Part shown: piece after piece, positions 16,344 through 50,659 of the stretch
Numbering within the stretch: the stretch's first letter is position 1
Layout: every line of letters starts with the position of its first letter
Assembly: GCA_951406725.2 (NCBI GenBank)
Contig: OX597822.1
Location: forward strand, 45,880,001 to 45,944,000
Reading direction: 5' to 3'
DNA from: Octopus vulgaris
Taxonomy: Eukaryota
DNA: 64,000 nt
Notes under the pieces: generated by a model
Told to the model about the DNA's origin: nothing
Database searches by the model: none
The model's input: only the letters and a program-made list of their open reading frames with translations
Position numbers and translations under genes: made by a program

Positions 16344-16473
16344 TATCTTTTTTACATGATTGAGGATTTGATTCCCATCGGGTCCATGGCAGTTCTCCAT
16401 CCCATATGGAGGTGTTATTTCTACTGTTTCCATTACAATTATATTCTTTCCTTTCCATTTAGTTTCTGCAATG
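16344..16473 (-). CDS. LSM12: LSM12 coding exon 4 (IAETKWKGKNIIVMETVEITPPYGMENCHGPDGNQILNHVKKI)
   Basis: W..KNI.VM..V.ITPPY..ENC.G.......HV.KI motif. Acceptor TTTCAG, donor ATA|GTAAGT, 130 nt. Confidence 0.93.
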
Positions 16474-17434
16474 CTGAAATAGAACAAGATGAAACATTTT
16501 TTTTAAAAACATGGTAAAAACAAAAAACAATTAACTAGACTAATACAAGTTTATATTAATGAGGGTAGTGGATCGATAGGGTATCAAACAAAATGTTTTT
16601 GTGCTCTTAATTATATTGAATTACTTTCAGAATTAAAATTCTACCAGGTTTGACTTGACCTTTAATCCTTCTGGCAGCAATGAAATAAATACCAGTTAAA
16701 TATTAGGGATTAGATTTTTAATCAACTGTTCCCTTCCACGAAATTCGTGGATTCGGATTGTATAAATCACCTCATTTACACTTCATGCTCTGCTAGGTTA
16801 AGATCAGAAGAGCTGAGAGGGTGTTTGTGTCTGTTCATGACTTAAGAGGCACCTAAAACCAATCTGGAAAATGCATGGTACACGCAACCAAATTATACTT
16901 GTTTGTAAGTGATAGTTATATTGCATGTTGAGGCCCAGGAGCTAAAATTTGTGGAGCAGATGTGGTCAATTGATTACATTAACCCCAGCAAGTACCTGAT
17001 GTAGGTTATTCTGTAAACCCAGGAGAGATGAAAGGTAAAGTTGATTCTGATGGGATTTGAATTCAGTAATATTATTACAGGTGCAAACATGGATGTGTGG
17101 TAAGGAATTTGCTTCCCAATTTCATTAATAGTCTATCAACTTTTGGGATTTGATCTCAGAACTCAAAAAAGGCATTTTTTGTTTTGCAGATGCTCTAACA
17201 ATTCTGCCAATTCCTCATCCATTCATAATCTTGGCACAGGGCCAGCAATTTTGAAGTGGGAGGGGGTCGATTACATCAATCCTTGCACCTGACCCTGAAA
17301 GGATAAAAAAATAAAAAGTCAACCCTTGTGAAATTTAAACTGAGAAAGTAAAGAGCCTGAAGAAATTACTGCTAAGTATTTTGTTTGATGTGCTAACGAT
17401 TCTTTAAGTCAGCCACCTTTTTACAATAAATAAT

Positions 17435-18507: not shown

Positions 18508-19684
18508 TATTTTGTCCAGAGTCATCATCAATATAATTCAAATCTATGCAGGGAGACTCCAATGGATTTCAAGTCCTCTGCCTTAACCATTCAGCCACAA
18601 TATCTGGATTATTAATAATAATAATAATCCTTTCTATTATAGGCACAAAGCCTGAAATTTGAGGGAGGGTCTTGTCAATTACATCAACCCCTTCCACTGC
18701 TCAGTTAGTAATTTTATCGGGCCTAAAAGGATGAAAGGCAAGTCAACCCTGACAGAATCTCAATTCAGAACATAAGGACAGAGAAAATGCCACAAAGCAT
18801 TTTGTCCAGTATGCTAATGGTTCTGCCAGTTTGTTGTCTAAAACACAGACACACACACATCATCATTCAATGCCTGTCTTCCATGGGTTGGACAGTTTGA
18901 TAGAAGCTGGCAAAGCTGAGAGCTGCACTAAGTTCCATTGTCTATTGTGGCATGGTTTCTACAGTTGGATGCCCTTCCTAATGCCAAAGACAGACAGACA
19001 CACATACACACAACGGGCACCTTCCATCTACAAAATCAATTCTCAAGGCTTTGGTCAGTCCAGGGATATAATAGAAAACACTTGCCCAAGGTGCTATGTA
19101 GTGAGACTGAACCAAAAACAGTGTGGTTGGGAAGCGATACTAGCATCTAATGAAAAGAGGTTACCATGTCGGGCACATATGGTTGTGATGTATGTGCTTA
19201 GGGTACCCTTATCAGATGGGTAGTCATATGGGTATACTGGGCTTTGTATATTTATATCCCAGCATCACCTTGACTGTGTGCTGCTCTCTGACTCAATAAT
19301 AATAATGGTTTCACATTTTGGTACAAGGCCAGTAATTTCAGATAAGAGATAAGTCGATTACACCAACATTTCATTGACCCCAAAAGGATGAAAGACAAAA
19401 TAAACTCTTGCAGCATTTGAACTCAGAATGTAAAATTGGAAGAAATCCTGAAAAGCATTTTTTCCAACCTTAATAATCGTTTCTACTATAGGCACAAGGC
19501 CTGAAACTTATCAACCCCCGAAAGGATGAAAGGCAAAGTCAGCCTCGGCAGACTCTGAACTCTGTGACAGACAAAATACTGCTAAGCATTTCACCCAGCA
19601 TGCTAATGATTCTGCCAGCTCATTGCCTTAATTTTCCAACCTTAATAATAATAATAATAATAAAGTAAAACAAAAAAAACCAAC

Positions 19685-19794
19685 GTTTTGATAATTGCAT
19701 CAAAAACTGCCTGTCCTTCGGCTGAAACACCAACACCAACGTGATTGACCCTCTCTTTCTTGCTGTCCACATTCTGTCTTATTCGGCTGGTCAG
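19685..19794 (-). CDS. LSM12: LSM12 coding exon 3 (LTSRIRQNVDSKKERVNHVGVGVSAEGQAVFDAIIKT)
   Basis: GVS.EGQ..F..I.KT motif of the LSM12 C-terminal (AD) domain. Acceptor TTTCAG, donor AC|GTTGGT, 110 nt, phase 2. Confidence 0.92.
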
Positions 19795-20134
19795 CTGAAA
19801 TGAAAGAATAAATTTAACATTAAAACACACGTCTCCATGATATATTTATTTATAAAATATTTAAAATATGTTAATATCATTCAAGTCCCAATAGAAGAGT
19901 TGTTACAAAGACCACCATCATCTTTTGTGGTCACTTCATGATATCATTGCTATGACAATATTGATAGCATCACATGTGTTTTACCAATTGATTAAGGAGT
20001 ATGTTGGCTATCAGTTCAATGTCAGAACTTGACTATTCAGTTGAATAAAGCTTTTGAATACAAAGGAGTGTATGTCCACAGTTTTACTCTGTTAAGTACA
20101 ACATAACACAACAATGTCATCACTGGTTAATAAT

Positions 20135-28720: not shown

Positions 28721-29623
28721 TAAAGGACATGAACTGCACCTGCTTTCGGTTATTTTTTTTTTTGCTTTTGGTTTTTTTCTACAGAAACCCACCTTTTCGA
28801 CTGTGAAGATTCCGAATCTGCAAAAAAAAACAGCATTTCAATATTTGAATCCCCCCACCCCGTTTTTCACTTTTTAGAAATCTATTTTGTTGAAATATGT
28901 AGAAAAATACGAAGATTAGGATTGTAAAAAAAAATTTGTAAAATTGAAATTTTACAAAAAAATAAACACCCCTCCCCCATAAACAGTATCTAAACAGAAA
29001 ACTCGACATGCTAGAAACAGCAGCTAAACGACGAATCGTTTTTTTTTTTTAATTTTATTCCCCACCCCCTTTTTTGACAGAGAGGTGGAGAGGGGGAAAA
29101 TTAAAATTTTGAAAATGTGTTTTTGGGAGTTTTCAAAATCTTCAATTTTTAAGTACGCTCCAACCGGAAAGTCCGTCAAGCTAGAAACAACAGCCAAATG
29201 AAGATCCACATTCTAAATACGAATTATCAAAAAAAAAATTTTTTTTTAAATGTCATTTTATTGTGTGTGTGTGTGTGTGCAAAAAAACTAATTTTTACAT
29301 AGCTCTAATTCCAAAAGATCCTCAACACCACATGTTCACTTTCTGTCACAGATGCGCTGGTGGAGTGGATGGGGGTGTTTATCTATTTATGTCTATTTAT
29401 TTTTGAAAAATTGAAATTTTACAAAATCTTTTTGTCATAATCATAATCTCCCTATTTTTTTTACGTATTTTGGAAAGAAAATTTCTTTTTTTTGGGGGGG
29501 GGAGGTTAAAACTTTGAAATGCCGATTTTTTTTTTGCAGATTCGGAATCTCCACAGTGGAAAAAGTGAGTTTCTGTTGAACCCCCCCCAAAAAAACGAAA
29601 GGGGGTACGGTTCATGTCCTTTA
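28721..29623. mobile_element. Fold-back DNA element with ~260-bp imperfect terminal inverted repeats
   Basis: Left TAAAGGACATGAAC.GCACC ... GATTCCGAATCTGCAAAA; right arm contains TTTTGCAGATTCGGAATC ... GTTCATGTCCTTTA. Confidence 0.8.
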
Positions 29624-32600
29624 CCTTCGCCAATTACTACATGCATATAAGGCAGAATCGTTAGCATAGCAGCATTATACGTTCTGAGTTCAAATTCCGC
29701 TGAAGTTGACGTAATCGACATACCCACCCCTCCTACTCCCGAAATTGCTGGCCTTGTGTCAAAATTTTAAGCCAATTATTATAATTATAATAAAAAGGAT
29801 GGTCAGTAGAATTACGTTCGTTTTATCGAATTGTATTATTCTTATTTTTATTTATTCTTTTCCATACACACTTCGTTGCATTTTATATATGAACCCACGA
29901 ATTAAAATTTATTCTCTGAGCGGCCTCGGACTAAACGATTTACAGTCCATTGGTTTGAGACCGTAAGTTTCATTTCGTGGACCACGTGGCTGGTAACAAA
30001 CAACAAATTAATTGATAATTAAACCAAAGTTAAAACGGATGTATTTGTTTTTAATGATTTTTTTTCTTTTTTAACCCGTTGCCTCAGTTAATAGGAAAAA
30101 AAAGTTTTCACAAAGGAATAACGAAAGACCCTCAAAAATTATTAATATTATTATTAAAGGCGGCGAACTAGCAGAATCGTTAGCACACCGGGCGAAATGC
30201 TTAACGATATTTCGTCTGCCGTTACGTTCTGAGCTCAAATTTCGCCGAGTTCGACTTTTGCCTTTCGACTTTTCAGGGTCAATAAAATTAGTACCGGTTA
30301 CGTACTGGCATCGATGTAATCGACTTATCCCCTTCCCTCAAAACTGAGGCCTTGTGCTTCCAGTAGAAAGAGTAATAATGTATTGAGGCTAATTTCATAC
30401 AATATACACGTTAAGGAGAGATGGAGGAGGGGGCGAAGGCCTTAGATAAACCCATAAAAACTTATGAAGTTAACGGACCGAAATGTGTTTTGGACTTGCT
30501 TAAAATCAGGTTCAGGCATGCGTTGAGGTTGAGAATGTGATAACGTGCCTAGACACCATAGATCTTGGCAAACAAGTGCGTGAACATGTACGCATGTTGG
30601 TTGGTATGTGCGTATTTCTCAAGTGTTTTAAAACGTAACTTTTCTTTTATTCTTTCCGGACTCTGCACTACGGTCATGCTGGAGCACCGCCTTGAAGGGT
30701 TTTATTCGAACAAATCGACCCTAGTGCTTACTAGTAGAATCTGGCATTCTATCGATTTCTTTTGCCAAACCGCTAAGTTAGGTGGGACGTAAACAAACTA
30801 GCACTGGTTGTCAAGTGATGGCGGTGGGAGGAGGATACAAAGACACACACCCCACGGGCTTCCACACAGTGTTCGTCTACCAAATCCACTCACAAGGAAC
30901 CACATCCACATCTGCGCCTTAATGCATTGGAAAGTATTAAAAAAGTCTTATTTTTAATCGATATTTAAAAGAAAATGTAATTAAAAAAAAACGCATTTGG
31001 CCAAATTTGGACATACGACAGTTAAACATAATAGCAACGATATACATATACAACCAACATAGATATAGGTTTGATATAAATGTTGAGTGAGCATGGAAAA
31101 GCAATTCGTTATTTTACACTCGTGAATTAACTCCGAAATGGATAATAGACGACACAACACTAAGGTAGATGATGACACGACACGACGTTTAAAGTGCTTC
31201 TGCTGGTGTGAACAAACGAAAAAGCAACACGTCCTTCGTAGAAAGCCCTCTCCACCACTACCATCACTATTAAACTGTTGTCCGCAAGATTTGTAGAGCA
31301 GCGATGCCCAACCCGTTTTGCACCACAAAAAAGGGTATCAACGCGCATAAGAAAACACGAAGTGCATAATATATAATTTTTAAAATCATCAAGTCTACTG
31401 TGATAGTCAAAATAGAATTAAAATTTTTTAATTTCTTTTTGTGTGAGTGTTCGGGGTACCTTGTTGTCGAGGGTCGTAGAAAAACACTTTGCGGTGTTGA
31501 CTTACGTCCCTTGAAATTTGGCGTCGATTTGAAACTGATATCAGCTTTTATCTGATCGATAAAATAAATATCAGTGATAATAAGGAATTGCCCCACCACC
31601 ATCGTCAAGTTTGGGAGTTCTCTGGGCTAAGGTTAAAATATTGTAGGTTGTTGACTCATGTCACACAGAACCTCGTTCGGCCTGCTGGAAATCACAGCCA
31701 AATTTATCAAATCACGATACCATAGCACCTTCAAAAATAAATAACTAAAAATGTAAACATTGGGTACAGTATTTCTAAATATACTGTACTTGCATAAAAG
31801 ATGAGATAGTCATGGTTGACCTGAATATAAACAGAAATCCTAGTTTTCGGTAACAAAAAAAAGTTATGGGTTGTGTAGCAGTTTGTGCTCTCTCTAGAAC
31901 CTCAACATTTGTTCAAGCCCTTCATTGAAGTTACAGTGTTCCTTCAACTAATACCATAGTCATCTGGTATCTTTTACCTCTGAAAACCTTATCCAATTGC
32001 AATGCCAAGCTCGCACATTTAACTGTGCACCCTATTAATAACTACAAGCCCACAGATCCATCAGGCTTGGTTACACGAGACAAGACTGGAGTACTTGCAA
32101 TTCATACAGCAATCATCATTGTTTTAACGTCCATTTTTCCATGCTTGCATGGGTCATACAGACTTTATTGAGGCAGATTTTCTACAATTGGATGCCCTTC
32201 CTGTCACCAACCCTCACCTATTTCCAAGCAAGGTAATGTTTCCCATGACCAAATAGGTCTTCACAGAACATTACAAATGATACAATGTCAAGACAATGAA
32301 ATAACACACATACAAGGGCTTCTTACAGTTTCCATCTATCAAACCTCCTCGCAAAGATTGGTCAGACGGAGAATACTGCAGAAGATACTTAGCCAAGGTG
32401 CTATGTAGCAGGACTGAACCAATGCTGTGTCAGTCTACTTTTTCTAGTGCATTAGACTTCAGGTTATCAAACTCATTAAATGTTTGCATTGAAGGAAATA
32501 AGGATGAAAAAAAAAATCTCATCTAATTTTCTCTTTCATAAACCAAGTTTGGATGATTGTGTCTATAAACCACCAAAGTTATAGAATGCCTGGCTGAATG

Positions 32601-38143: not shown

Positions 38144-41113
38144 GTATATATAGGTGTGGGTGTGTGGTAAGGAGCTTTAAGCACAGGCGTGACTGTGTGG
38201 TAAAAAGTTTGCTTCCCTACAACATGGTTCCAGGTTCAGCCCCACAGTGTGGCACCTTGAGCAAGTGTCTTCTACTACAGCCCATAGTATATATATGTTT
38301 GTGTGTGAGTTTGTCCTGCCTCCGTTGCTGGAGAACTGATGTTGGTGTGTTTATGTCCCCATAACTTAGCAGTTCAGCAAAAGAGACCGATAGAATAAGT
38401 ATTAGACTTATAAAGAATATGTCCTGGGATCGATTTATATATATATATACACACACACATGCACAGGAATGGTTGTGTAGTAAGAAGTTTGCTTCCCAAC
38501 CACATGGTTTTGGGTTCAGTCCTGCTGTATGACACTATGGTCGAGTGTGTTCAACTATAACCAATGGACAACCAAACTAGCAGAAAGAAATTGAAAGAAG
38601 ACCATCCTATATACAGATGAATGTGTGTGTGTGTGTGTGTGTGCTACTCTCTATTTGCCTTGACATCATGTGATTGTCATAAATGAGTGACATCATCAGG
38701 CAAAACAGCATTTTCTCCAATCTTCTGTGAAAGTATATTCAGGAATAAGGGAGAGAAAATCTTACTTGGAAACAGGTGAGAGTTGATGACAGGAAAGGCA
38801 TCCAGCCATAAAAAAAAAATCCACAACAAATTTTGTCCAACCCATACAAACATGGAAAAGCAGACATTAAAAGATAGTGATACACAATGCATTTTTTTTT
38901 AAGGGATTCTAAATATAGAGACAAAGCCACAACGTTTGAGGGCTGGGTAAGATAACAGGCAAAGTTAACCATAATAGAATATGAACTCAGAGCGCAAAGG
39001 ACCATAATTACATACCACAATGCAGTTTATCTAACAACTCACTCAACAAGTTTGACTAATTAATAACTGCTGAAATTTGTTGAGGCAGATTTTCTACAGC
39101 CAAATGCTCTTCCAGTCACTAACCCTCACTTGTTTTGAAGCACAGTAATATTTCCCATATGGTCAGGCATGTTTTTCAGGGAAAACCAGAAACAAACTAT
39201 GCTGCTTGTAATGATGGAGATGTGCTTTTACAATCATGATGATGTCACGATAAGAGTACACACAAGCACACGCCATCACTTAATGTCTATTTTCCATGCT
39301 TGCACAGGTTGAACAGCTTGACTGGAACTGGTAAAGGCCAGGGGCCGCACCAGGTTCCATAGTCTGTTTTGTCTTGGTTTCTACAGCTGGATGCCCTTCC
39401 TAACACCAACCACATTACAAAGTATATTGGGGGCTTTTTACCTGGCATCATCACCAGTGGTTTCAATTTCAATCTATCAAATCCACTCACAAGGCTTTGA
39501 TTGGCTCAGGACTATAGAAGATACTTGCCCAAAGTGCTGCACAGTGGGACTGAACCCTAACCAAAATGGTTAGGAACCAAGCTTTGTAACCAGAGCCATT
39601 CATCATGATTGTTTAACATATACTTTCCATGCTGGTATAGGTTGTATGGTTTGACATGGAGCTGGCCAAACTCCAATTGTCTATTGTGACATGGTTTCTA
39701 TAGCTGGATGCCCTTCCTGATGCCAACCACCTTGCCAAGTGCCTTTTACATGCCACCAGCACAGGTGTGCTTAAACAGCACCAACACAGGTGCTTTTTAC
39801 ATGGCATCAGCACCTGAAAGGACAAGCCTGTATGTCTAGAAGACAATTTTACTTACCTATACTTATATTAGATGTTATACTATGCGACTCCCACTGTCAC
39901 TAAATAATCCCTTGATATTTTCTTTAAAACAGCATGCAGTAAAAGAGACATAATTACGTAATATTCATGCTTTTTTTTTAAATATATGCTGAAGGAAATG
40001 TAATACTGGTAGGTTATCAACCAGAAACTGAACCTACACAAAAGCCTCTGCCAGGTTGTTCCACATGCTAGAAATAGCAACGAAATCAATTCACGTTTTT
40101 GGAGCTAAACATGTAGGGACCAAGAGTATGAAACTACCATCACGATAAACAGACCTTTGAAAGTCCCCAGGAGGTGAGGGGTTGTCATAATTAAATGATA
40201 TTCTGTTATCAATCATAACTAGTTCAAAGGAATGCCAAGAAGATAGTGAGATGGTCCAAACAAAAATGTAGACCAGCATTGGAATAAATGCAACCCTCCA
40301 CCTCCACACACAAAGTTCCGAGGTTAGCTACTTTTCAAATCACTGAGGGAATATCTATATGGTCGCTAGACTTGATAGAAACAGCAGTCAAAGTCTCAAA
40401 TTACATCTTACAATTTTTTTTTAAAACACATTGCTTAATATAGTCCCCAGTATACCAATAAATGAGATAGTCACTGTTGGAACGCCTTTACCTGTAGGTT
40501 TGCTTAACCAGGGCAGACCTGTGACTTAAGACATTCTATATTCTTCCAAAGCAGAACCAGTAAATATTTAGAGAATATGTCATGTCCCAATCTTTTGCCA
40601 GGGTTCGTAATTGATTTTATTCCCGATTCATGCTTTTTATTAACTGTAGTAGTCCCTTGAAGAGAAGAAAATGCCAAATCGATTCTAGCGAGATTTGAAA
40701 ACGGCAATAATTTTCGTTAACTAACGATGCTCCTTTCAGATTGTAATTTTATGAGAAAGCCTTAAATAAAACTAAAAGAAAAAAACAATTTCGAACTACA
40801 TTTAAACGGATGGAAATATAAATATATATACACACACACAAAAAAAAGCCAAAGAAATACACTCCGACCTAAGTAAAGGAAGCCAAACCCGTTAGAATAA
40901 GCCCAACCTTATTCCAACCAAAGCCTACAGTCATTAAAAGAGCACGTTATATAAAGCAGCCCTAGATACACAGTTTCAACTGAAGAAAACAATGGGATGG
41001 TCACTGCTGGAAGGCCTTTGATCGCTGATCAGCTCAGAGCTAAGGTGGGGTCAAGTAACCAAAATATACATCTCATAAACAAAAAAGAATGTTATAAAAC
41101 ACTATTATAAAAA

Positions 41114-41165
<52 letters not shown>

Positions 41166-41447
41166 CTGATTAAAAATAATATAGGTCCAACTTTGGTGTA
41201 CATTTATTCCAGTCGTACCCATCTAACCATTTTTTTAAATCTTTATTTTTTCACCAATAATCTATTTTAAATGTATTAAATGTTACAAAGACTGTAAGGG
41301 TGTGATTTAGGGAACGTATATACTGTTGTCATGCAGGAAAGATGACAGAGGTTTTAATTTTCATCTGTGGAATGCGTAATCATATAGTCATACTGTTGCT
41401 ACTCCGAGTTTCGCGTTGTCCTTATTTCGTTCTATAAACACACATAT

Positions 41448-41498
<51 letters not shown>

Positions 41499-42443
41499 CG
41501 TATTTTGATAAGCTTAAGAGTTTGGGGAGTAGCAACAATTACAATTTCTGATGAGGCAAGGATGAAGAAATGAAGACTAGGTAGGAAGGTGTTCAGTGTT
41601 TGTGTAGTAGTAGCAGTAGTAATAATACTAGTACAAGAAATTATGTGTATAGTGGTCATCAGAAACAAGCAGTTAAATCTTGATCGACCCGGTAAAAATA
41701 GCAGCCAAATCTCCCTCGGTTTGTCTTAGAAACGAAAGGACACACTGTACAATGTAGTCATCGATCTTCGAATTCCACTCACATGTCGGATGCGTTATAG
41801 GAATATAAATTGACCTAAGAATTTTGGTATATATGTGAATAAGAAGACAAGATGTTCATTGATAGAAAGTCTTTGATAGTAGGTACACCCGAAAGGGGCT
41901 GACCTGGGACTAAAGAATTACATCCCAACCTGCTAGATTAGATATAGCAGTCAAATGTTCCTCATATATCATACTCAACCATTTTAAGAAAGGATAGACA
42001 CGAGATAATGGTGTAGTCCTAGATACGCTATTAATAAAACACAGGGTGATCGTAATCATAATGTCTTTGATAAGGTCTGTCTACACAATCAAAGCTGACC
42101 AAATGCAAAACAAGAATTAAGACTTAACGTGGTAAAAATAGCAGGCTAATATCCCTAAATTCACATCCTACCATTTTTAAGTATCCGAGTACATGTTGTG
42201 CTAGATACAACCATACCTGAATAAAATACACAAGATGGTCACAGCTGACCTGAGGTTAAATAACAATAAAAATCTACAAGTATAATTACAACATTAAGTG
42301 TTGTTGCCGGCAGAAACTCTGTCCGTGTCTGTCTCTCTTTTCTCTCTCTCTCACGCACACGGTCCTCTCTCTACAAAGATATTTACTGCAAAGAACAAAA
42401 TATACAAACATACAAGAGGTATAAGCGAAGGTAAAAAGGATAC

Positions 42444-42561
42444 TAATTATTAGCAATTTGGTACCTATGTCGAAAGCAGCGACCTCTCCTTCCAGTTTCT
42501 CATTATAAACGGTGGTGCAAGAAATCCGGCTTCCAACAATGAAACATTCACTGTCCGCCAT
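42444..42561 (-). CDS. LSM12: LSM12 coding exon 1 (MADSECFIVGSRISCTTVYNEKLEGEVAAFDIGTKLLII, N-terminal Sm fold)
   Basis: Matches the LSM12 N-terminus as I recall it (F.VGS.VSC.T.....L.GEV.AFD...K.L). ATG at 42561; 118 nt, ending in phase 1 at the GTATCCTTT donor. Confidence 0.93.
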
Positions 42562-42579
42562 ATTTTGATACAGCTTCAT

Positions 42580-43260
42580 TTTCACCTTAGTGAAGACGGT
42601 TTCAGGCAGTGAATAAAAAAAAAACATATAAAATTCAAAAGTTTATTGCATACTCAAAAAATTTCACAAGTATTACAATAGCAAAAATTTTCGAAATTGT
42701 TTCCAACATCTATAAGCATTTAAGAAAAATAAAATAAATTTCTACCAAATAATAATTTAGATATTTGCATGCAGAAAAGGAAGGGGAACAAATGAAGTAC
42801 AGCATTGTTAAAATATGGAAGATTAAAAAGGTAATAATTTGTATGCCGTGAAGCAAATGAAGAAATTACATTTCTATCATTTTTAACAATTTATGCGAAA
42901 ATTTAATAAAGAATTTTAAGCATAGCATTTATCCTCTGAAATGAATCTGGATAGTAATACTGTATAAATTAAAAGAAAAAGGTAATTACAAGATGTATGT
43001 TATGTCATTCCATAATTTGCTTCTGTAGGCGTTAAGTTTTGATGCACTATACCTTAATTTTTCAAGAGGTGGGGAACCGATCAAGTAATTTTTAACATTA
43101 TAATAATTTTATCATCCAGAAAAGCATTAACTTTATGAAATATTTAAGAAGTAATTTTTTAAATTTTCCAAGGAAATTGTGATTTATATTTAATGAATCG
43201 GGAAAGGATAAGAAGTTGAAAAACTAAGAATGCAGCTCATCACGTAAAACGTGGTTACAG
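42580..43260. promoter_or_regulatory. Putative bidirectional promoter between LSM12 and the boule-like gene
   Basis: Divergent gene starts about 0.7 kb apart; no recognisable transposon; lies in a CpG-retaining domain. YY1-like AATATGGCGG overlaps the LSM12 ATG. Confidence 0.55.
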
Positions 43261-43266
43261 AGCACC

Positions 43267-43330
43267 ATGTGGACACGAATAACAAACATGGACTTTGCTT
43301 TCCCACTTGTGATTAGAAACCAAGCTGAGG
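43267..43330 (+). other. Probable upstream exon of the boule-like gene (ATG in GCACCATG context, MWTRITNMDFAFPLVIRNQAE, donor G|GTGAGT)
   Basis: Strong donor at 43331; polypyrimidine tract at about 44195-44220; first downstream AG at 44244-44245. The exon's 5' end is unknown. Confidence 0.5.
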
Positions 43331-44300
43331 GTGAGTAGTCGCTCCATACATCCGTTATGTATGTACCTGATTGCTTGCGTGTCGTGCTCAAGTTACCCTT
43401 AATTGCGATTCAATTCTAAAGGTATTTAATTTAACTTTATATATTAATGTTTACCTTTCAATCACAGTAAATATGTGTATAAACATGTATATATATATAT
43501 AGTATATACACATACATATAATTAAATATACATACCCACATTTTGTATTACAGGTTGTTGAGTGAAGATGTATTAAAAAAAAAAAAAAAACGAATTCAGT
43601 GTTCAGAATGAAGAACTAAAAAGTAAAGCATTATTAATAGATAATTACAAATATATATTTTCTTTCGAACCATTATATTTCTGTCGAAAGTTCATTCTTC
43701 CAACTAATCTTTTACCATTTGTACTCACTAAATCTCTCGTTTAGCTGTTACCATGTTAAAAGTTGCTTGGTTTTTTTTTTTTTTTTAATGAACTTTACCC
43801 TCTGCATTATTTTGTGCTATCATTATTAAAAAATATGTATATATTTCCCTACTTTCGGTAACAATAACTTTTTTTTGTTTCTATTCAAATTTATTTATTG
43901 AAAAGCTGGCTGCAGCCGAGTCCAAATTTAGATTCTCTCTCCATCACACACATTTATTCTAAAAGGGGTGTTAGCCCTAACTATCGGTTTAAAAAAAAAG
44001 AAAGAAAGGAAATTCCACCTAGATAGCAAATTCTATAAAATTCAGACTTCATTCACAAACAGAGGTGTGGGGCTCTTTCTATAGGCTGTTTTTTTTGTAT
44101 GTGTATAGGTAATTGTTTTAATTTAATTCTTAAAAAAAAAAAAAATTAAAAACACCTAGTCTATTAAACGAATAAGCTTTGTCTGTATACTAAATTTCTT
44201 TATTTTTCTTTCTTTCTCTATATCACTATCTGTTGCTGCTACCAGTGTCACACACCAGACCCAGCCAGCCTTACACAACACAGTTTCTTCGGCTTCCGCT

Positions 44301-45371
44301 ATGACCAGCGGTACGGTAACCACCGGTGCTCAGTTCGGTACCTATATACCTCAAAGGATTTTTGTTGGTGGAATTCCAAGAGATACGACTGAAAATGACC
44401 TAAAATCTTTCTTCACCTCGCACGGATCGGTCAAAGACTCGAAAATCATCATCGACAAAGGAGGCGCCTCTCGTGGCTACGCTTTTATTACTTTTGAAAA
44501 ACAAGAGGACGCCGAACGTCTCGCGTCCAAAGATGGGGAACCAATTTTCTTTCGTGGCCGAAGGCTTAATATCGGTCCCGCTGTCAAGCGTCACATACCA
44601 CACCAGAGTCCATCTCCCACGGTTGACGCCAGAGAAGTAACCCCAAATGCAGTTTATTACAACGGGCTCGGCTATGCCTATCAAAATGCCATGACCTTGT
44701 TGCAAGCCGACGACAACTATACAGTGGCACCAACTTCCGCCTATCCAGCCAGTACTGTCTTACTTTCACAACCTCAGAATAGCTATATTACGCCGGCTAC
44801 CAATTATTCCTACCATCTCGGTTCTACTCAGTGGCTGCCACCTGCCGCTCACTGGACTATTGCCCAACCGTCTGCCACAAGTCCGTACCTGAACGCCAAC
44901 CCGGCTTACTACTATGCTGCTAACTTACCTAGCGTCCAGTACGCACCCGAGTTTATGTACCAGGCTCAAGCTGCTACTGGAGCTGCAACTGGCTACCCAT
45001 ACTCTCATGCTGCCAGTCCTGTAGACCCAAGTCAGTACATTGAAAACTATCAACTGGAAACTCAGGGCAACGAAGCTACAGACAACGGGAATGGATCGTC
45101 AGAAATGGCCTCAGAATATTTACAAACGCAAACGGCGCCACTGCCGACAAAACCTACCCTTATCGCCTACCCGCGTCGACCGAACGTTGCAATGAGCGCC
45201 CACCTACATCAACCCTATTCGAATGCTGTCCTACTGAAACACCCAAAGAAAGGCCCCACGGTCATACCGTCTACCCCACAAAGTATTTTGCAGAAGTCTT
45301 TCACTACGGAACCTGTCGACGGAGTTGGCAATTTATTACTGACACCCCCTGCAACGCCGAGTACCAAATAA
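44301..45371 (+). CDS. boule: Boule/DAZ-family RNA-binding protein: N-terminal RRM plus Y/P/A/Q-rich low-complexity tail; single-exon ORF
   Basis: FGTYIPQRIFVGG (RNP2 context), RGYAFITF (RNP1) and LNIGPAVKR match Boule family signatures (YGT.IPNRIFVGG, KGYGFVTF, LNIGPAIRK). Intact 356-aa ORF with GC content above the flanks. Confidence 0.85.
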   Translation: MTSGTVTTGAQFGTYIPQRIFVGGIPRDTTENDLKSFFTSHGSVKDSKIIIDKGGASRGYAFITFEKQEDAERLASKDGEPIFFRGRRLNIGPAVKRHIPHQSPSPTVDAREVTPNAVYYNGLGYAYQNAMTLLQADDNYTVAPTSAYPASTVLLSQPQNSYITPATNYSYHLGSTQWLPPAAHWTIAQPSATSPYLNANPAYYYAANLPSVQYAPEFMYQAQAATGAATGYPYSHAASPVDPSQYIENYQLETQGNEATDNGNGSSEMASEYLQTQTAPLPTKPTLIAYPRRPNVAMSAHLHQPYSNAVLLKHPKKGPTVIPSTPQSILQKSFTTEPVDGVGNLLLTPPATPSTK

Positions 45372-46421
45372 AAACTTTTCGGCGATTGTGGACTGATATA
45401 TTTCCTTTCCTCTCACTCTCTGTGTTGGTACCAGAACTTTGGTAACTTGCAAACAGCAATTAACAACCTATAAAAAAAATATTTAAAACCCCTCAGAAAT
45501 AAGCCACTCTTATCTAGTTTACTTTTTCATTAATATGACAAAATGTAAAAAAAAACAAAAAAAAAAACTAATTTATTAAACTCCTAATCCTTGTCTTTTT
45601 TTTTTCCTACAAAAGGATTAAGGCGATAACTAGAATGCACCTTCTCTCACACTCTCCTCCTCTATTCTGTTATCGATAATTCCCCTCGCACTGGGAGGGG
45701 TGAAAAAAAAGAAGTTGCTTAATGTTACCTTCCAGGCCACCCGACCACTCACATCCTAATCTTCAACTCTTGTCACTTTGACCCCTTCTATCTTTCACCC
45801 CTTCCCCCTTCTATCTTTCTCTCTCACCCCCTCCCCCTTCGAGAAATATATAATTTTCTTTTGCTTGCTATATATTAACGACAGGATGATAAGAAACGCT
45901 CCACCATCACCATTATTACTTAACGAGCCTGTCTGAAAATTAAAATCTCGACATGCACACACATGCTTTAGGAGGGCGGGAGTGGACTTAGCTTTCTGCC
46001 ACCCACCTATACCACCATTTTTTTTTTTTTAATGTGCCCCTCCCCTACATCAGATTTCCACCCCCATTGGCACTATGAAGGAAAGATCAGTTGGAGTCTT
46101 TCTACACACAATTATATAACACACACACACACAAAGGTAGACTCGATTGTTGTTAGTACTTGTCCAGTTTAACATGTACCGACAATATGCACACATGCAT
46201 GCATTCAAAGTGCAGTATTTATCTTGTACACACAAACACACACACGTACATACATCTGCCAAATGAACTGCTGGAAATATATAAGCAGAGATTTTGTGTG
46301 CTCCTAGCATATATATTACAAACAACACATACACACACATCTATATAGCACTCGGACACAGTTCCATTACAGCTGGCACAGTCAGCCTCTCATATAATGA
46401 ATGTATCTTCTGAAGAAAGTG

Positions 46422-46443
46422 AATAAAAAAAAATGGTAATAAA
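46422..46443 (+). terminator. Candidate polyadenylation signals of the boule-like gene (two AATAAA)
   Basis: AATAAA at 46422 and 46438 followed by T-rich sequence; would give a 3' UTR of about 1.1 kb. Confidence 0.5.
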
Positions 46444-49400
46444 AGGTAAAAAAGAAATGTCTTGTTTACATTCTATTTAAACTGCAATTTCCATCCTTTT
46501 TTCTGTTTTTGATATTTCTTAAACTAAATTTAATTTCTTTTCGGTGAAACGTTATTTTACACAGTAAAATAATTTTGTCCACTTCACGAAATATTTTCTC
46601 AACTGGTCCTATCAATTGAATTCACTATTAAATTAACGTGCAAGTGGATGACTATTTCAGACACGTGTACCCTTATCGTAATTCTCAGGTCTAATCTGCC
46701 CGACATATGTGACCTGGTTGAACTTTTTTGAACTGCCGGTACAGTCTATCCAACAGTTTCTATCTACCCAATTTCGCCACAAATTTGTGGTTTAGGGTTA
46801 AAAAATATATAAAATTAGCGAGTTATGCTGAAGGGTTGAACTCCGGGTCTCGTGATTGCGAAGCGAACTTCGTTAACCATTCAGCTATGCTCGTTCTCTT
46901 TCAACTGGAATTTAACCCCTGACCAACCCTAAATTATTAGACATTTTGGTCGTGGCCATCTCGTTTTATTGTAGATCCAATACTGCATTGTTCAGTTTGA
47001 CTTTTAAAAAAATTCGGCTGCTATTTCTAACAGCTCGGTGGAAGATATCTCTTGACCGAAGTTGTACAAGGTCTGTGTTTGCTCCTTGTTTTCAGTTTCT
47101 CCAAAGACCCAACTGAACTCTCGTCTTCAACTTCAACAGTTCCCAGTCCCAACACTGCCCTGGTCGTGCAGACCTGATCAAAGGAGTTTATTTTAAACCA
47201 GACGTAAAGTAACCCTTTACTTCATAGAAATGTTTTATTTCTACGTGGGGGAAATTTGGTTACTATAAGTTTACATTGAAGAGACTTGGTCGTTGACAAG
47301 GGCCTCATAAGTTAACGCAGTGAACCATTTCATACGAGGCAATTAGTGTTATCTTCGTCTGTGATCTGTCACTGTACTACCCTTCCTCTATTTGCCTGGC
47401 AACTAAATTCTGACCCCACGTTGTTGGCTTGTCACCAGTAACCGATTTTCCTGTTGAAACCTACTGTAAATTTACCTTGTTGGGGAGGGGTTAAGCCAAT
47501 TTTTTAAAAACTTTTTTTTGAATTTTCATGCTGCAGTTTGCCGTAGCTATTCAAAGTAAACACAAGTGAATTGTCGCCTGTAGTGGTCTTCTTTGAAAAA
47601 AAAATGTTTGACTGTCCTTAAGGTTGTTTTGCTTTTTTTTTTCAATGCTTCTGATTGTATAGTAACGAAAAAAAAAACGCAATTGTCTTTAAAATGATAT
47701 ACACCGTATATCGTTGAAAAATATTTCCTAAGCTTCAGTAGGGGCTCGCTATTAACTTAGTTTTTGCAGTGTTGTTTCTCTAAGCATACACTAAGAAGTC
47801 CCTATCGTCGCCAATTTTTTCCCCTACGTTACTCCACTTAATGAATGGACTAGACACTTTACCGGCGCAAAATTCTTTACTTCATGGTATTGGACAGTTT
47901 AGTATAAAAAAAATCTATTTGTCGCCATCCTCCTTTGCAATCACAGGGTTCCTGTTAGGAACACTGCAATCAGCAAGAAGTACTCAGTGATTGAATCGGA
48001 CAGATGAGCAACGTGGTTTTGATTCCTATGGTGTCAGGGAGGTCGTTTTAATTTCTCTTACTGTTGTCAGTCAAATCCAGCCCTCACTTTATTCTCCAGC
48101 TTGAAAGTTTTTTTTTTTTTTTTCTGTGTGTAAGATTAATGGAAATATCGTTTCATTTGTTCAGTTACCAAGTCAACATAGAACTGACTGATTATGAAAG
48201 CCATGACCATCTTGATAGGATGTGATTTGAGGAAGATTGAGCTGCTCTGTCTTGCAAGTCAAACGACTACGTAGGGAAGATTCCTTCATTTGGTTTGTTT
48301 TTAGCTACCGGCATTCATATTGGTGTGAGATGAAGTCGTTTGCTGTTCTTCTGCTGCTAGCATGATCTGAAGTTGTCTTTCGCTAGTGAAAAGAAATTAG
48401 CAACAGGAAGGAATTGCTAGTTTAATAACAACCAATAGTAACTGGATACCTTGTGGGTGGGAGTTCAAGTCTTTAACGTCACTTTTCTCTTATGCTATCT
48501 CGTCTAAAGATTTATTACCAACACAACTGCTTACTTATCCTGATAGAAATAACAACTATATCTACCTCCTCAAATTAGTAAACTTTCTTCAAAATTTGCT
48601 AGCCAAAAATGGATATTGATTAGTGTTGGTGGGGGGGGGGGATGAAAATTGACGGCCAGCTTTCAAGAGCCGAGAATACTACTGATAAGTCGGAAGGGCA
48701 GAGAAGATAATTGTCATCACCATTTTAACGTCCCATTTTTCATGCATGGGAATCTGGGGCAGATTTTTTTTATACCAGATGCCTTTCCTGTCGCCAGCCT
48801 TTACTCGTTTCCAAGCAAGGTAATATTTTCCCATAGTCAGATGTTTCTTTTTTGCAGAATTTTGGAAATAGCATTGCTTTTATGCCAATCATTTTAACAA
48901 CTATCACGCGATGCCAAGATATAGAAAGACACGCTCACATGCATACGTATATATATATTATATTATGTATGTAGTTCAAATTTACAGAAAACAGAAGACG
49001 AGGGGAGGTGTAGGAACAACAAGCAGGTGTATTAATTTAATGTTTGGAAAAAGTAGAAAAGTCTTTTACATTTTGAACCAACACTCTTCGACAAAGGATT
49101 AAGAGCGAGGAAGAAAACGGAGAGGAAATGTGTGCAAATATATATAAAGATCTATGTATAAATTTCATTTGACTGCGGCCAGGCTGGAGCACTGCTTTCA
49201 GTCGAACAAATCGATCCCAGGACTTATTTTTTGTAATATATATAATGTGTGTATATATGCAGAGAAGGAGGACGGGCTTCTTTCAGTTTCTATCTACCAA
49301 ATCAACTCGCAAGGGTCGGCCTGGGGCTAGAGTAGAAGACATTTCCCCGAGATGCAACGCGGTGGGACAGAACCTTGTAGTCTGCGCCTATAAATACGAA

Positions 49401-49609
49401 GTGGCGGAAATGTTTCAACGGATTGTTCTACAAATAATGTAAATGCAATTGTTTCTCGTATGTTGAGAGTTGAAAAAGTTTGACATAAAACAGCTCAATA
49501 TTCGTCTTTTTAAAACCGAAACAGGTAAGGGAGATAACTCCTATTAGCAGAGCATTTGGTCAAAGTTTTCTGGCAATGTAGATCAGGGTTCTACAGTTCT
49601 AGACTTAAG

Positions 49610-49970
49610 AGATGAGGAATTATGTATATTATTTACAATTGACGGATATTTGTCCTCATCTTGTTTGTTGTAAACACAACATTTCGGCTGATAATCCCTC
49701 CAGCCTTCATCAGGTGTCTTGGAGAAATTTCGAACCTGGGTTCTCATTCCTAATGTATTTTTCCATGTTGTTATTATTCAGGTCACTGACTGGAATCGAA
49801 CTCAGAATCTCGGGGTTAGTAGCCTGCGCTCTTAACCTGAATAATAATAATAATAATAATAATAACATCGAAAAATACCTTAGAAATGAGAACCCAGGGT
49901 ATATCAGCCGAAACGTTGTCAACAACAAACAAAATGAGGACAAATATCCGTCAATTGTAAATAATGTAGA
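49610..49970. mobile_element. Inverted pair of a short repeat with a tRNA-like head and hammerhead core
   Basis: About 49620-49780 is the reverse complement of about 49860-49968 (the latter has an internal deletion); tRNA-like segment at 49790-49836 (-). Confidence 0.7.
49672..49719 (-). ncRNA. Minimal type I hammerhead ribozyme motif
   Basis: Minus strand reads AGACAC CTGATGA A GGCTG-N10-CAGCC GAAAT GTT GTGTTT: stem I, core, stem II and a vestigial stem III. Confidence 0.6.
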
Positions 49971-50659
49971 TGAGGGGTTCCCCCAACCATCAGGCCACTG
50001 GCCAGTGTTGGGCCACACCAAAAAAAAGAAGAGAATTTAAAAATTTATTTTTATTTGATCAACTATCACAATCTGCAGGGTGTTATATATGTATTAATTA
50101 GATTCTGTACTATGCACTTCGTTTTGTTATGCTTTTGATCCCCTCTGTCCTTGGAAATATTGTTTTACATGATATTGGTCCGAGGTGCAAAAACGGTTGG
50201 CGACCGCTGACGTAGACAATGGACATTGTTGGAGATTTTGTCTTTGAAGCCAATCGACCTTTTAGCATTTAAACCAGCCCAGAATATTCTTCCTGTTCTC
50301 TGTTTAAACCTGCCAAATCAGACTTCTCACACCTACTCTACAATGTCATTCTAAAAATAAACAATTCCATTGAACTCTCTGAGCGACGAGATAATGCATA
50401 ATTAATTTCAAACAATGAATAAGCATTATATTTGACAGAGTAATCAGAATGCTAAAGTGTTAAATATGATATGCATTAAAGTTTAAAATATGGGGAGAAA
50501 AGAAAACCCCTTTTTTTTTTTTAACATTCAAGCATTAGCATGGATTTTCTAAAGCTTTAAATTGTTCCAGCATGGGTACTTTTTATGCAGAATTGGCACA
50601 GGTGTTTTGATGCGGCACCATCAACCATGCAAGGTGAGGGCCTTGGCTGAGAGAGGGAG

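Follow-up and report, generated by a model that had tools for sequence, protein, structure and literature searches.

The 64,000-nt stretch of Octopus vulgaris DNA analysed here (the window, on contig C9) holds a boule-type RNA-binding protein gene in one uninterrupted reading frame, lying head-to-head with LSM12, which raises the question of where such a gene came from, whether it still functions and in which tissue it acts. An earlier note, made from the DNA letters, had read it as a candidate retroposed extra germline regulator of the DAZ family that survives by using the LSM12 promoter. The reading frame is as that note described: 356 codons and a stop (P0001), with RNA recognition motif (RRM) and tail in a single stop-free exon. 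The same frame is the longest stop-to-stop stretch in the window, at 403 codons against 177 for the runner-up. Pfam RRM_1 matches residues 20-83 (E 5.5e-17), and the diverged motifs that had been quoted are all present in P0001: PQRIFVGG as RNP2, RGYAFITF within RNP1 (DKGGASRGYAFI) and PAVKRH within a C-terminal GPAVKRH. The O. sinensis "protein boule-like" (P0002) is identical at 355 of 356 residues. In the predicted structure, pLDDT is approximately 80-96 at residues 11-100 and below 50 for most of residues 103-347; within the tail, the motifs NGLGYAYQN (residue 121), QW (residue 177), PYSNAVLLKH (residue 305) and LLTPP (residue 346) can be aligned to mollusc Boule. The frame is intact among decayed repeats, as claimed, with transposase or reverse-transcriptase remnants in three of the six nearby frames scanned.

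Contigs of all four runs examined (four studies) cross the ORF unbroken, join position 43421 to 44246 and reach approximately 46446. That these four runs are RNA is a guess; the clean GT-AG splice joint in their contigs marks a processed transcript. At most one intron had been expected upstream of the ORF, and the one spliced 5'-UTR intron listed in Table 1 is what was found. Position 44301 is the first in-frame ATG, and the spliced leader contains an in-frame stop. At the other end, AATAAA/ATTAAA hexamers at 46422 and 46438 lie just upstream of the contig ends seen in three of the four runs. The 5'-most contig end of the boule copy is at 43063, or at 42997 in one low-depth contig, and the leader from 43063 to 43421 contains seven upstream ATGs that open short frames of 5-23 codons; if transcription starts so far upstream, this suggests that the boule-copy mRNA is itself under translational control. 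The ORF is present in 20 of 24 listed runs from eight studies, none of them recorded as RNA and none labelled by tissue. At the intron acceptor (window 44244-44246), the N-termini of the proteins P0027 and P0028 diverge (VAASS versus LKKI) ahead of ASNF, and this divergence point matches the phase-2 junction within VAATS of the octopus copy. The acceptor may thus be conserved in these cuttlefish-cluster proteins.

Table 1. Features of the boule copy and its LSM12 neighbour in the window
Feature	Position	Strand	Basis or remark
Two LSM12 AD-domain exons	19681-19797 and 16344-16493	-	No further AD match found genome-wide
LSM12 exon 1, ATG at 42561	42444..42598	-	Pfam LSM12_LSM, E 9e-15; contigs
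Gap between divergent transcripts, 464 bp, 25% GC; candidate shared promoter	42599..43062	.	Contig ends
Non-coding exon 1 of the boule copy	43063..43421	+	Start taken from the long contig reaching furthest 5'; no mapped TSS
Sole intron, 5' UTR, 824 bp, GT-AG, phase 2 relative to the ORF frame	43422..44245	+	Joint in 4/4 runs
Single-exon ORF, second boule gene	44301..45371	+	356 aa + stop (P0001)
Boule-type RRM, aa 13-98	44337..44594	+	Pfam; structure model; Dazl fold matches
Low-complexity A/P/T/S/Y/Q-rich tail, predicted disordered	44595..45368	+	Alignment; low pLDDT
3' UTR	45372..46446	+	Contig ends 46446-46448 in 3/4 runs

An intron-containing boule, for which a search had been proposed, was found in the same genome. 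A scallop Boule query gave seven exon-sized matches on contig C27, and exact protein mapping resolved the canonical boule (P0069) into 12 coding exons with GT-AG edges over 102 kb (C27:34550933-34653176). Three of its introns are inside the RRM and one is at the RRM end, which fits the conserved Boule layout given in PMC2904765. The stretch of the parent that corresponds to the window ORF contains ten introns, and all ten are absent from the copy, the pattern of a retrogene with an intron-containing parent elsewhere in the genome. Because all ten are missing, the second boule copy is very probably the product of a retroposed boule mRNA. Copy and parent have RRMs that are 62% identical and share only 4 of 22 four-fold sites, i.e., these sites are saturated, so that a poly(A) remnant and target-site duplication are expected to have been lost. 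A processed boule mRNA would have been inserted before octopods and decapods separated and would have gained a 5' non-coding exon; the copy would then have changed fast on its stem branch before being held by purifying selection.

Could the copy instead be a DNA-level duplicate from which recombination with its own cDNA later removed every coding intron? The surviving intron lies 5' of the ORF, where cDNA-driven loss would leave one, and intron-poor RRM genes are common in this genome, since 12 of the 19 RRM matches are in frames of at least 250 aa. However, the surviving intron is in phase 2 while the first coding intron of the parent is in phase 0, all ten homologous introns would have had to go, and the copy is on a different contig from the parent, with no match to the LSM12 AD domain on C27. 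We consider this origin quite unlikely and prefer retroposition. A recent or pseudogene origin was rejected on the basis of the orthologues and the four-fold saturation. Out-of-Z retroposition was also dropped: the Z is O. vulgaris chromosome 16 (bioRxiv 2024.12.09.627507), and neither C9 nor C27 is the Z if contig numbers follow chromosome numbers. Protein and DNA searches of the genome, in which the best candidates were scored, gave no third intact boule copy. A decayed 200-bp fragment on another contig (C8:78272936-78273137, minus strand) is identical to the RRM of the copy at 142 of 198 aligned bases; it scores 120, where the best of 30 shuffles scores 46, and is closer to the intronless copy than to the parent. 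The rest of the ORF was not found within 10 kb around it.

To date the duplication, we turned to other cephalopods. Orthologues of the copy are present in O. sinensis (355/356), in Argonauta (88%), and in Sepia pharaonis and Logan/ENA proteins (52-57%), and both paralogues are recorded in O. sinensis, Argonauta and Sepia pharaonis. On the sequence evidence, the duplication is older than the split between octopods and decapods, which dates back roughly 270-300 million years. The decapod copy would also be intronless, judging by P0006 (29.5-kb contig), whose N-terminus seems to continue through the 5' intron into an ORF without breaks. All our trees are quick trees, the second copy tree being made without 27 long-branch and redundant rows that were removed after the first. 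All copies group in a single clade (SH-aLRT 100) with a stem of 1.7-1.9 changes per column, and within it octopods are split from Sepia-like rows. An RRM-only tree that included 24 non-DAZ RRMs (84 columns) placed the copies, with their single N-terminal RRM, inside the DAZ/Boule clade with a support of 99, in agreement with the proposed DAZ-family membership; a non-DAZ RRM identity was rejected by this placement together with the Dazl fold matches presented below. The copy clade falls near the bivalves in one quick tree and is unplaced in another, and the AU test does not reject a grouping of the clade with the cephalopod parent (p-AU 0.31).

A profile of six copies gave five clusters at 620-697 bits, followed by ordinary Boule at 211 bits or less (7995 best candidates scored). 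Three of the five high-scoring clusters are named, all of them cephalopod, and a profile search of 1.84 billion representatives gave one cluster. The description "lineage-specific" in the earlier note has to be adjusted, since the gene is common to octopods and cuttlefish and is therefore old. The long stem and the varying position would also fit a second boule lineage as old as the molluscs or older that was lost outside cephalopods, as would the absence from the copy of the HMTTQ... exon, which every one of the 26 coleoid parent isoforms listed contains and which the copy may predate. The drop from 620 to 211 bits below clusters whose three named members are all cephalopod, the single cluster among the representatives and the one boule homologue described for Pomacea in the available text of PMC13072017 speak against such a lineage, making it very unlikely. 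Argonauta has two parent-type boule records (P0060 and P0160) on different scaffolds (2.8 and 5.4 Mb), representing either a further duplicate or a haplotype.

We next consider constraint. Among five copies, identity is 81-95% in the RRM and 47-86% in the tail, compared to 97-100% and 78-91% for the parents of the same groups; between octopus and Sepia, the values are 88% and 54% for the copy versus 99% and 89% for the parent. Across the four runs, the 1071-bp ORF has no differences while the 3' UTR has five substitutions and five indel rows, which is weak evidence alone. Of the 41 RRM positions at which 90% or more of 43 other Boule proteins agree, 33 are kept in all five copies; twelve RRM positions are fixed in the copies for a non-consensus residue. 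R53K, K58R and K97R are fixed in the five copies at sites that are invariant in all 43 other Boule proteins, and most of the fixed swaps retain charge. The RNP2 motif PQR(I/V)FVGG occurs in 13 of 13 copy-type proteins, with its Q in none of the 43 others, and the R-GY-A pair of the copy RNP1 is seen in none of 211 scorable Boule-type proteins (245 in the set). Like an established retrogene, the copy is intact, transcribed and under purifying selection, as judged indirectly from the identity, four-fold and run comparisons, and it almost certainly encodes a functional protein. The proposal of an intact, intronless and diverged but functional DAZ-family copy is thus supported; the contrary results named in advance (a sole boule copy that is intronless across molluscs, a position outside the DAZ family, or neutral change with no expression) did not occur where they could be tested.

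The five best fold matches of the model are all the mouse Dazl RRM, four of them with RNA (rmsd 1.7-2.9); the Dazl matches (PDB 2XS5, 2XS7, 2XSF and 2XS2) have TM values of 0.81-0.87 on the target at 38-39% identity. Dazl is likewise the top hit among single-domain PDB entries. According to the accessible parts of PMC12285545 and PMC4884919, the DAZL RRM binds GUU-type 3'-UTR elements and promotes translation through PABP. Since the fold and the aromatic RNP residues are kept, the copy most likely acts as DAZL does, and by this analogy DAZ-like translational control is quite likely. As in the rest of the family, its RRM would bind U-rich or GUU-like 3'-UTR elements and its tail would recruit poly(A)-binding protein, causing targets to be stabilised and translated. 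An altered RNA preference may result from the fixed changes in the RRM, which lie near RNP1 and the C-terminal strand.

What drives expression of the copy? The 5'-most contig end of LSM12 is at 42598, leaving the ends of the divergent transcripts 399-464 bp apart on opposite strands (these are contig ends, not mapped start sites). This confirms the head-to-head arrangement, and by contig ends the two genes fall within the less than 1 kb between divergent 5' ends that defines a bidirectional pair. The gap is single-copy except for a repeat-like end. Capture of the LSM12 promoter, as put forward in the earlier note, is nevertheless unsupported: the adjacency is shown for this genome alone, and the numbering of squid genes hints that the two are apart there. 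Squid Lsm12 (EB44958) is 343 gene numbers from Boll-2 (EB44615) and 17 from Pard3, the counterpart of which is located at C9:91 Mb in O. vulgaris, 45 Mb from the boule copy. If the squid numbering is positional and Boll-2 is indeed the orthologue, boule copy and LSM12 are not adjacent in squid, in which case the octopus arrangement may be secondary. That the promoter was captured at the birth of the copy seems doubtful to us.

The CpG observed/expected ratio is 0.60-0.91 per kb over the boule-copy region (window 41001-50000) and 0.99 for the ORF, compared to 0.37 for the whole window and 0.51 for the coding sequence of the C27 parent. This suggests that germline gene-body methylation affects the parent and LSM12 but spares the boule copy, and the high ratio over the copy, unlike that of the LSM12 body, hints at separate regulation. 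LSM12 does contain a CpG-rich patch (window 29001-32000; 0.91-1.14), the first 635 bp of which are a dispersed repeat with approximately 75-80% identical copies on many contigs.

The germline part of the earlier reading, an extra DAZ-family regulator specific to the germline and sustained by a bidirectional LSM12 promoter, draws on what is known of the family: Boule is gonad-restricted in the deuterostomes examined in PMC2904765, and in a snail boule is male-biased and needed for sperm, although the same source (PMC13072017, as far as available) also detects it in somatic tissues. In addition, the boule copy and LSM12 are close together and both are found in three of the four runs, among the pieces listed, and the decayed C8 fragment needs germline expression if it was made from RNA. 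However, "boule" has no matches in the text or supplement of an O. sinensis gonad paper, and boule terms are absent from the supplements of PMC9712504 (three files), PMC9023564 (seven), PMC13218726 (one) and PMC11202624 (one). With a boule paralogue listed in squid optic lobe and the large separation of Lsm12 and Boll-2 in squid gene numbers, we regard this reading as unlikely. No gonad data were found to support the germline role, and the only tissue-labelled hint is neural.

This hint comes from a bobtail squid atlas, Table S5 of which lists "Boll-2" for two adult optic-lobe clusters (PMC12240821). As tabulated there, 12% and 24% of the cells in these clusters have Boll-2, against 16-18% of the other cells, if the unlabelled columns follow the Seurat convention, as we assumed. 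The atlas, by its available description, extended gene models by 3 kb at the 3' end, so that Boll-2 counts may include neighbouring genes. In the same table, the gene-number neighbours of Boll-2 include H2B (EB44609) and alpha-tubulin (EB44622). On O. vulgaris C9, H2B is 2.0 Mb and alpha-tubulins are 0.6 and 3.7 Mb from the boule copy; H2B/alpha-tubulin pairing at 4 Mb covers about 0.35% of the genome, and the parent contig C27 has none of 35 tubulin and none of 121 histone matches. The assignment assumes positional gene numbers, and these neighbours were chosen after the fact, with three other close neighbours left out. Against it, the RIG-I C-terminal domain, a gene-number neighbour of squid Lsm12, maps to C2. 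A neighbour named in advance, the myosin-I tail, has clear matches on C6, C12 and C17, and one on C9 that is below the cut-off and 112 Mb away. Taken together, squid Boll-2 is probably the orthologue of the intronless copy. The parent boule could also be neural, as Drosophila boule reportedly has neural roles, going by two paper titles. Substantial somatic or neural expression of the copy is, in our estimate, somewhat favoured. On balance we lean towards an account in which a shared, coding-intronless boule, retroposed, would regulate translation by binding 3' UTRs, probably in somatic or neural tissue as well as or instead of the germline. A bolder version, in which the retrogene was fixed before the octopus-squid split, had its RNA-binding surface re-tuned and is broadly present in optic-lobe cells, adding DAZ-type 3'-UTR control to the coleoid brain, is put forward only tentatively and is less likely to be right than wrong.

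How does the copy compare with known systems? Its single N-terminal RRM resembles that of Boule/BOLL, with 51% identity to Pan BOLL in addition to the parental value given above, and it shares alignable tail motifs and a place in the DAZ/Boule clade with mollusc Boule (Argopecten P0013, Pomacea Pcbol). Boule as delimited in PMC2904765 has the RNP2 PNRI(V)FVGG, the RNP1 DRAGV(I)SKGYGFV(I) and two or more introns placed at conserved junctions of the RRM. The C27 parent shows all of these; the copy departs from both signatures and has no RRM intron. Unlike Boule, it has no coding introns and carries the RRM swaps N18Q, R53K, K58R, G61A, K88R, K97R and Q98H; unlike the parent, to which its tail is only about 32% identical, it evolves faster. 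The DAZ repeat (Pfam PF18872) has no match in P0001 or in the parent P0069 and is not discriminating in molluscs. Mouse Dazl is the best structural match, yet DAZL is described as a duplicate of vertebrates that has 11 exons and carries a DAZ repeat. Lineage-restricted, diverged extra boule genes are also described for sea anemone (Boule2) and Macrostomum (macbol1 and macbol3) in PMC2904765 and PMC13072017. Boule2 likewise is without some RRM introns but, in contrast to the copy, keeps RRM junctions (PMC2904765), and in the available text neither it nor the Macrostomum genes are described as retrogenes. Amphioxus SYCP1, as presented in PMC5803294, is an invertebrate germline gene that, like the copy, is a single-exon retrogene, using neighbouring regulatory elements; it replaced a lost parent, whereas the cephalopod boule parent was kept.

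The protein is already named "boule-like" in databases. In RefSeq, "protein boule-like" is the intronless copy in O. sinensis and the true boule goes under other names, so the paralogue quantified in expression studies may not have been the intended one. In the full-text literature searched, which has most subscription papers outside it, no title or abstract reports a cephalopod boule duplication. The copy is an old and conserved boule paralogue in coleoid cephalopods that has no coding introns and is probably a retrogene. Boule ranks with the most conserved genes of reproduction, and a processed copy that persists in both octopus and cuttlefish, with fixed changes at RNA-binding sites that are invariant elsewhere, provides a natural test of target shift in a DAZ-family RRM. 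If the optic-lobe Boll-2 of squid is this copy, it also becomes a candidate for a neural post-transcriptional innovation of cephalopods.

Two further observations concern the surrounding genome. A strongly diverged alpha-tubulin-like gene is located at C9:46507241-46507630, 0.6 Mb from the boule copy. Multi-RRM genes in single open frames of 264-661 aa are present on C10 (102.7 Mb), C11 (20.5 Mb; two), C20 (two), C7 and C21; by motif, we take these to be three PABPC, three hnRNP A and one ELAV copy, and they are possibly further retrogenes.
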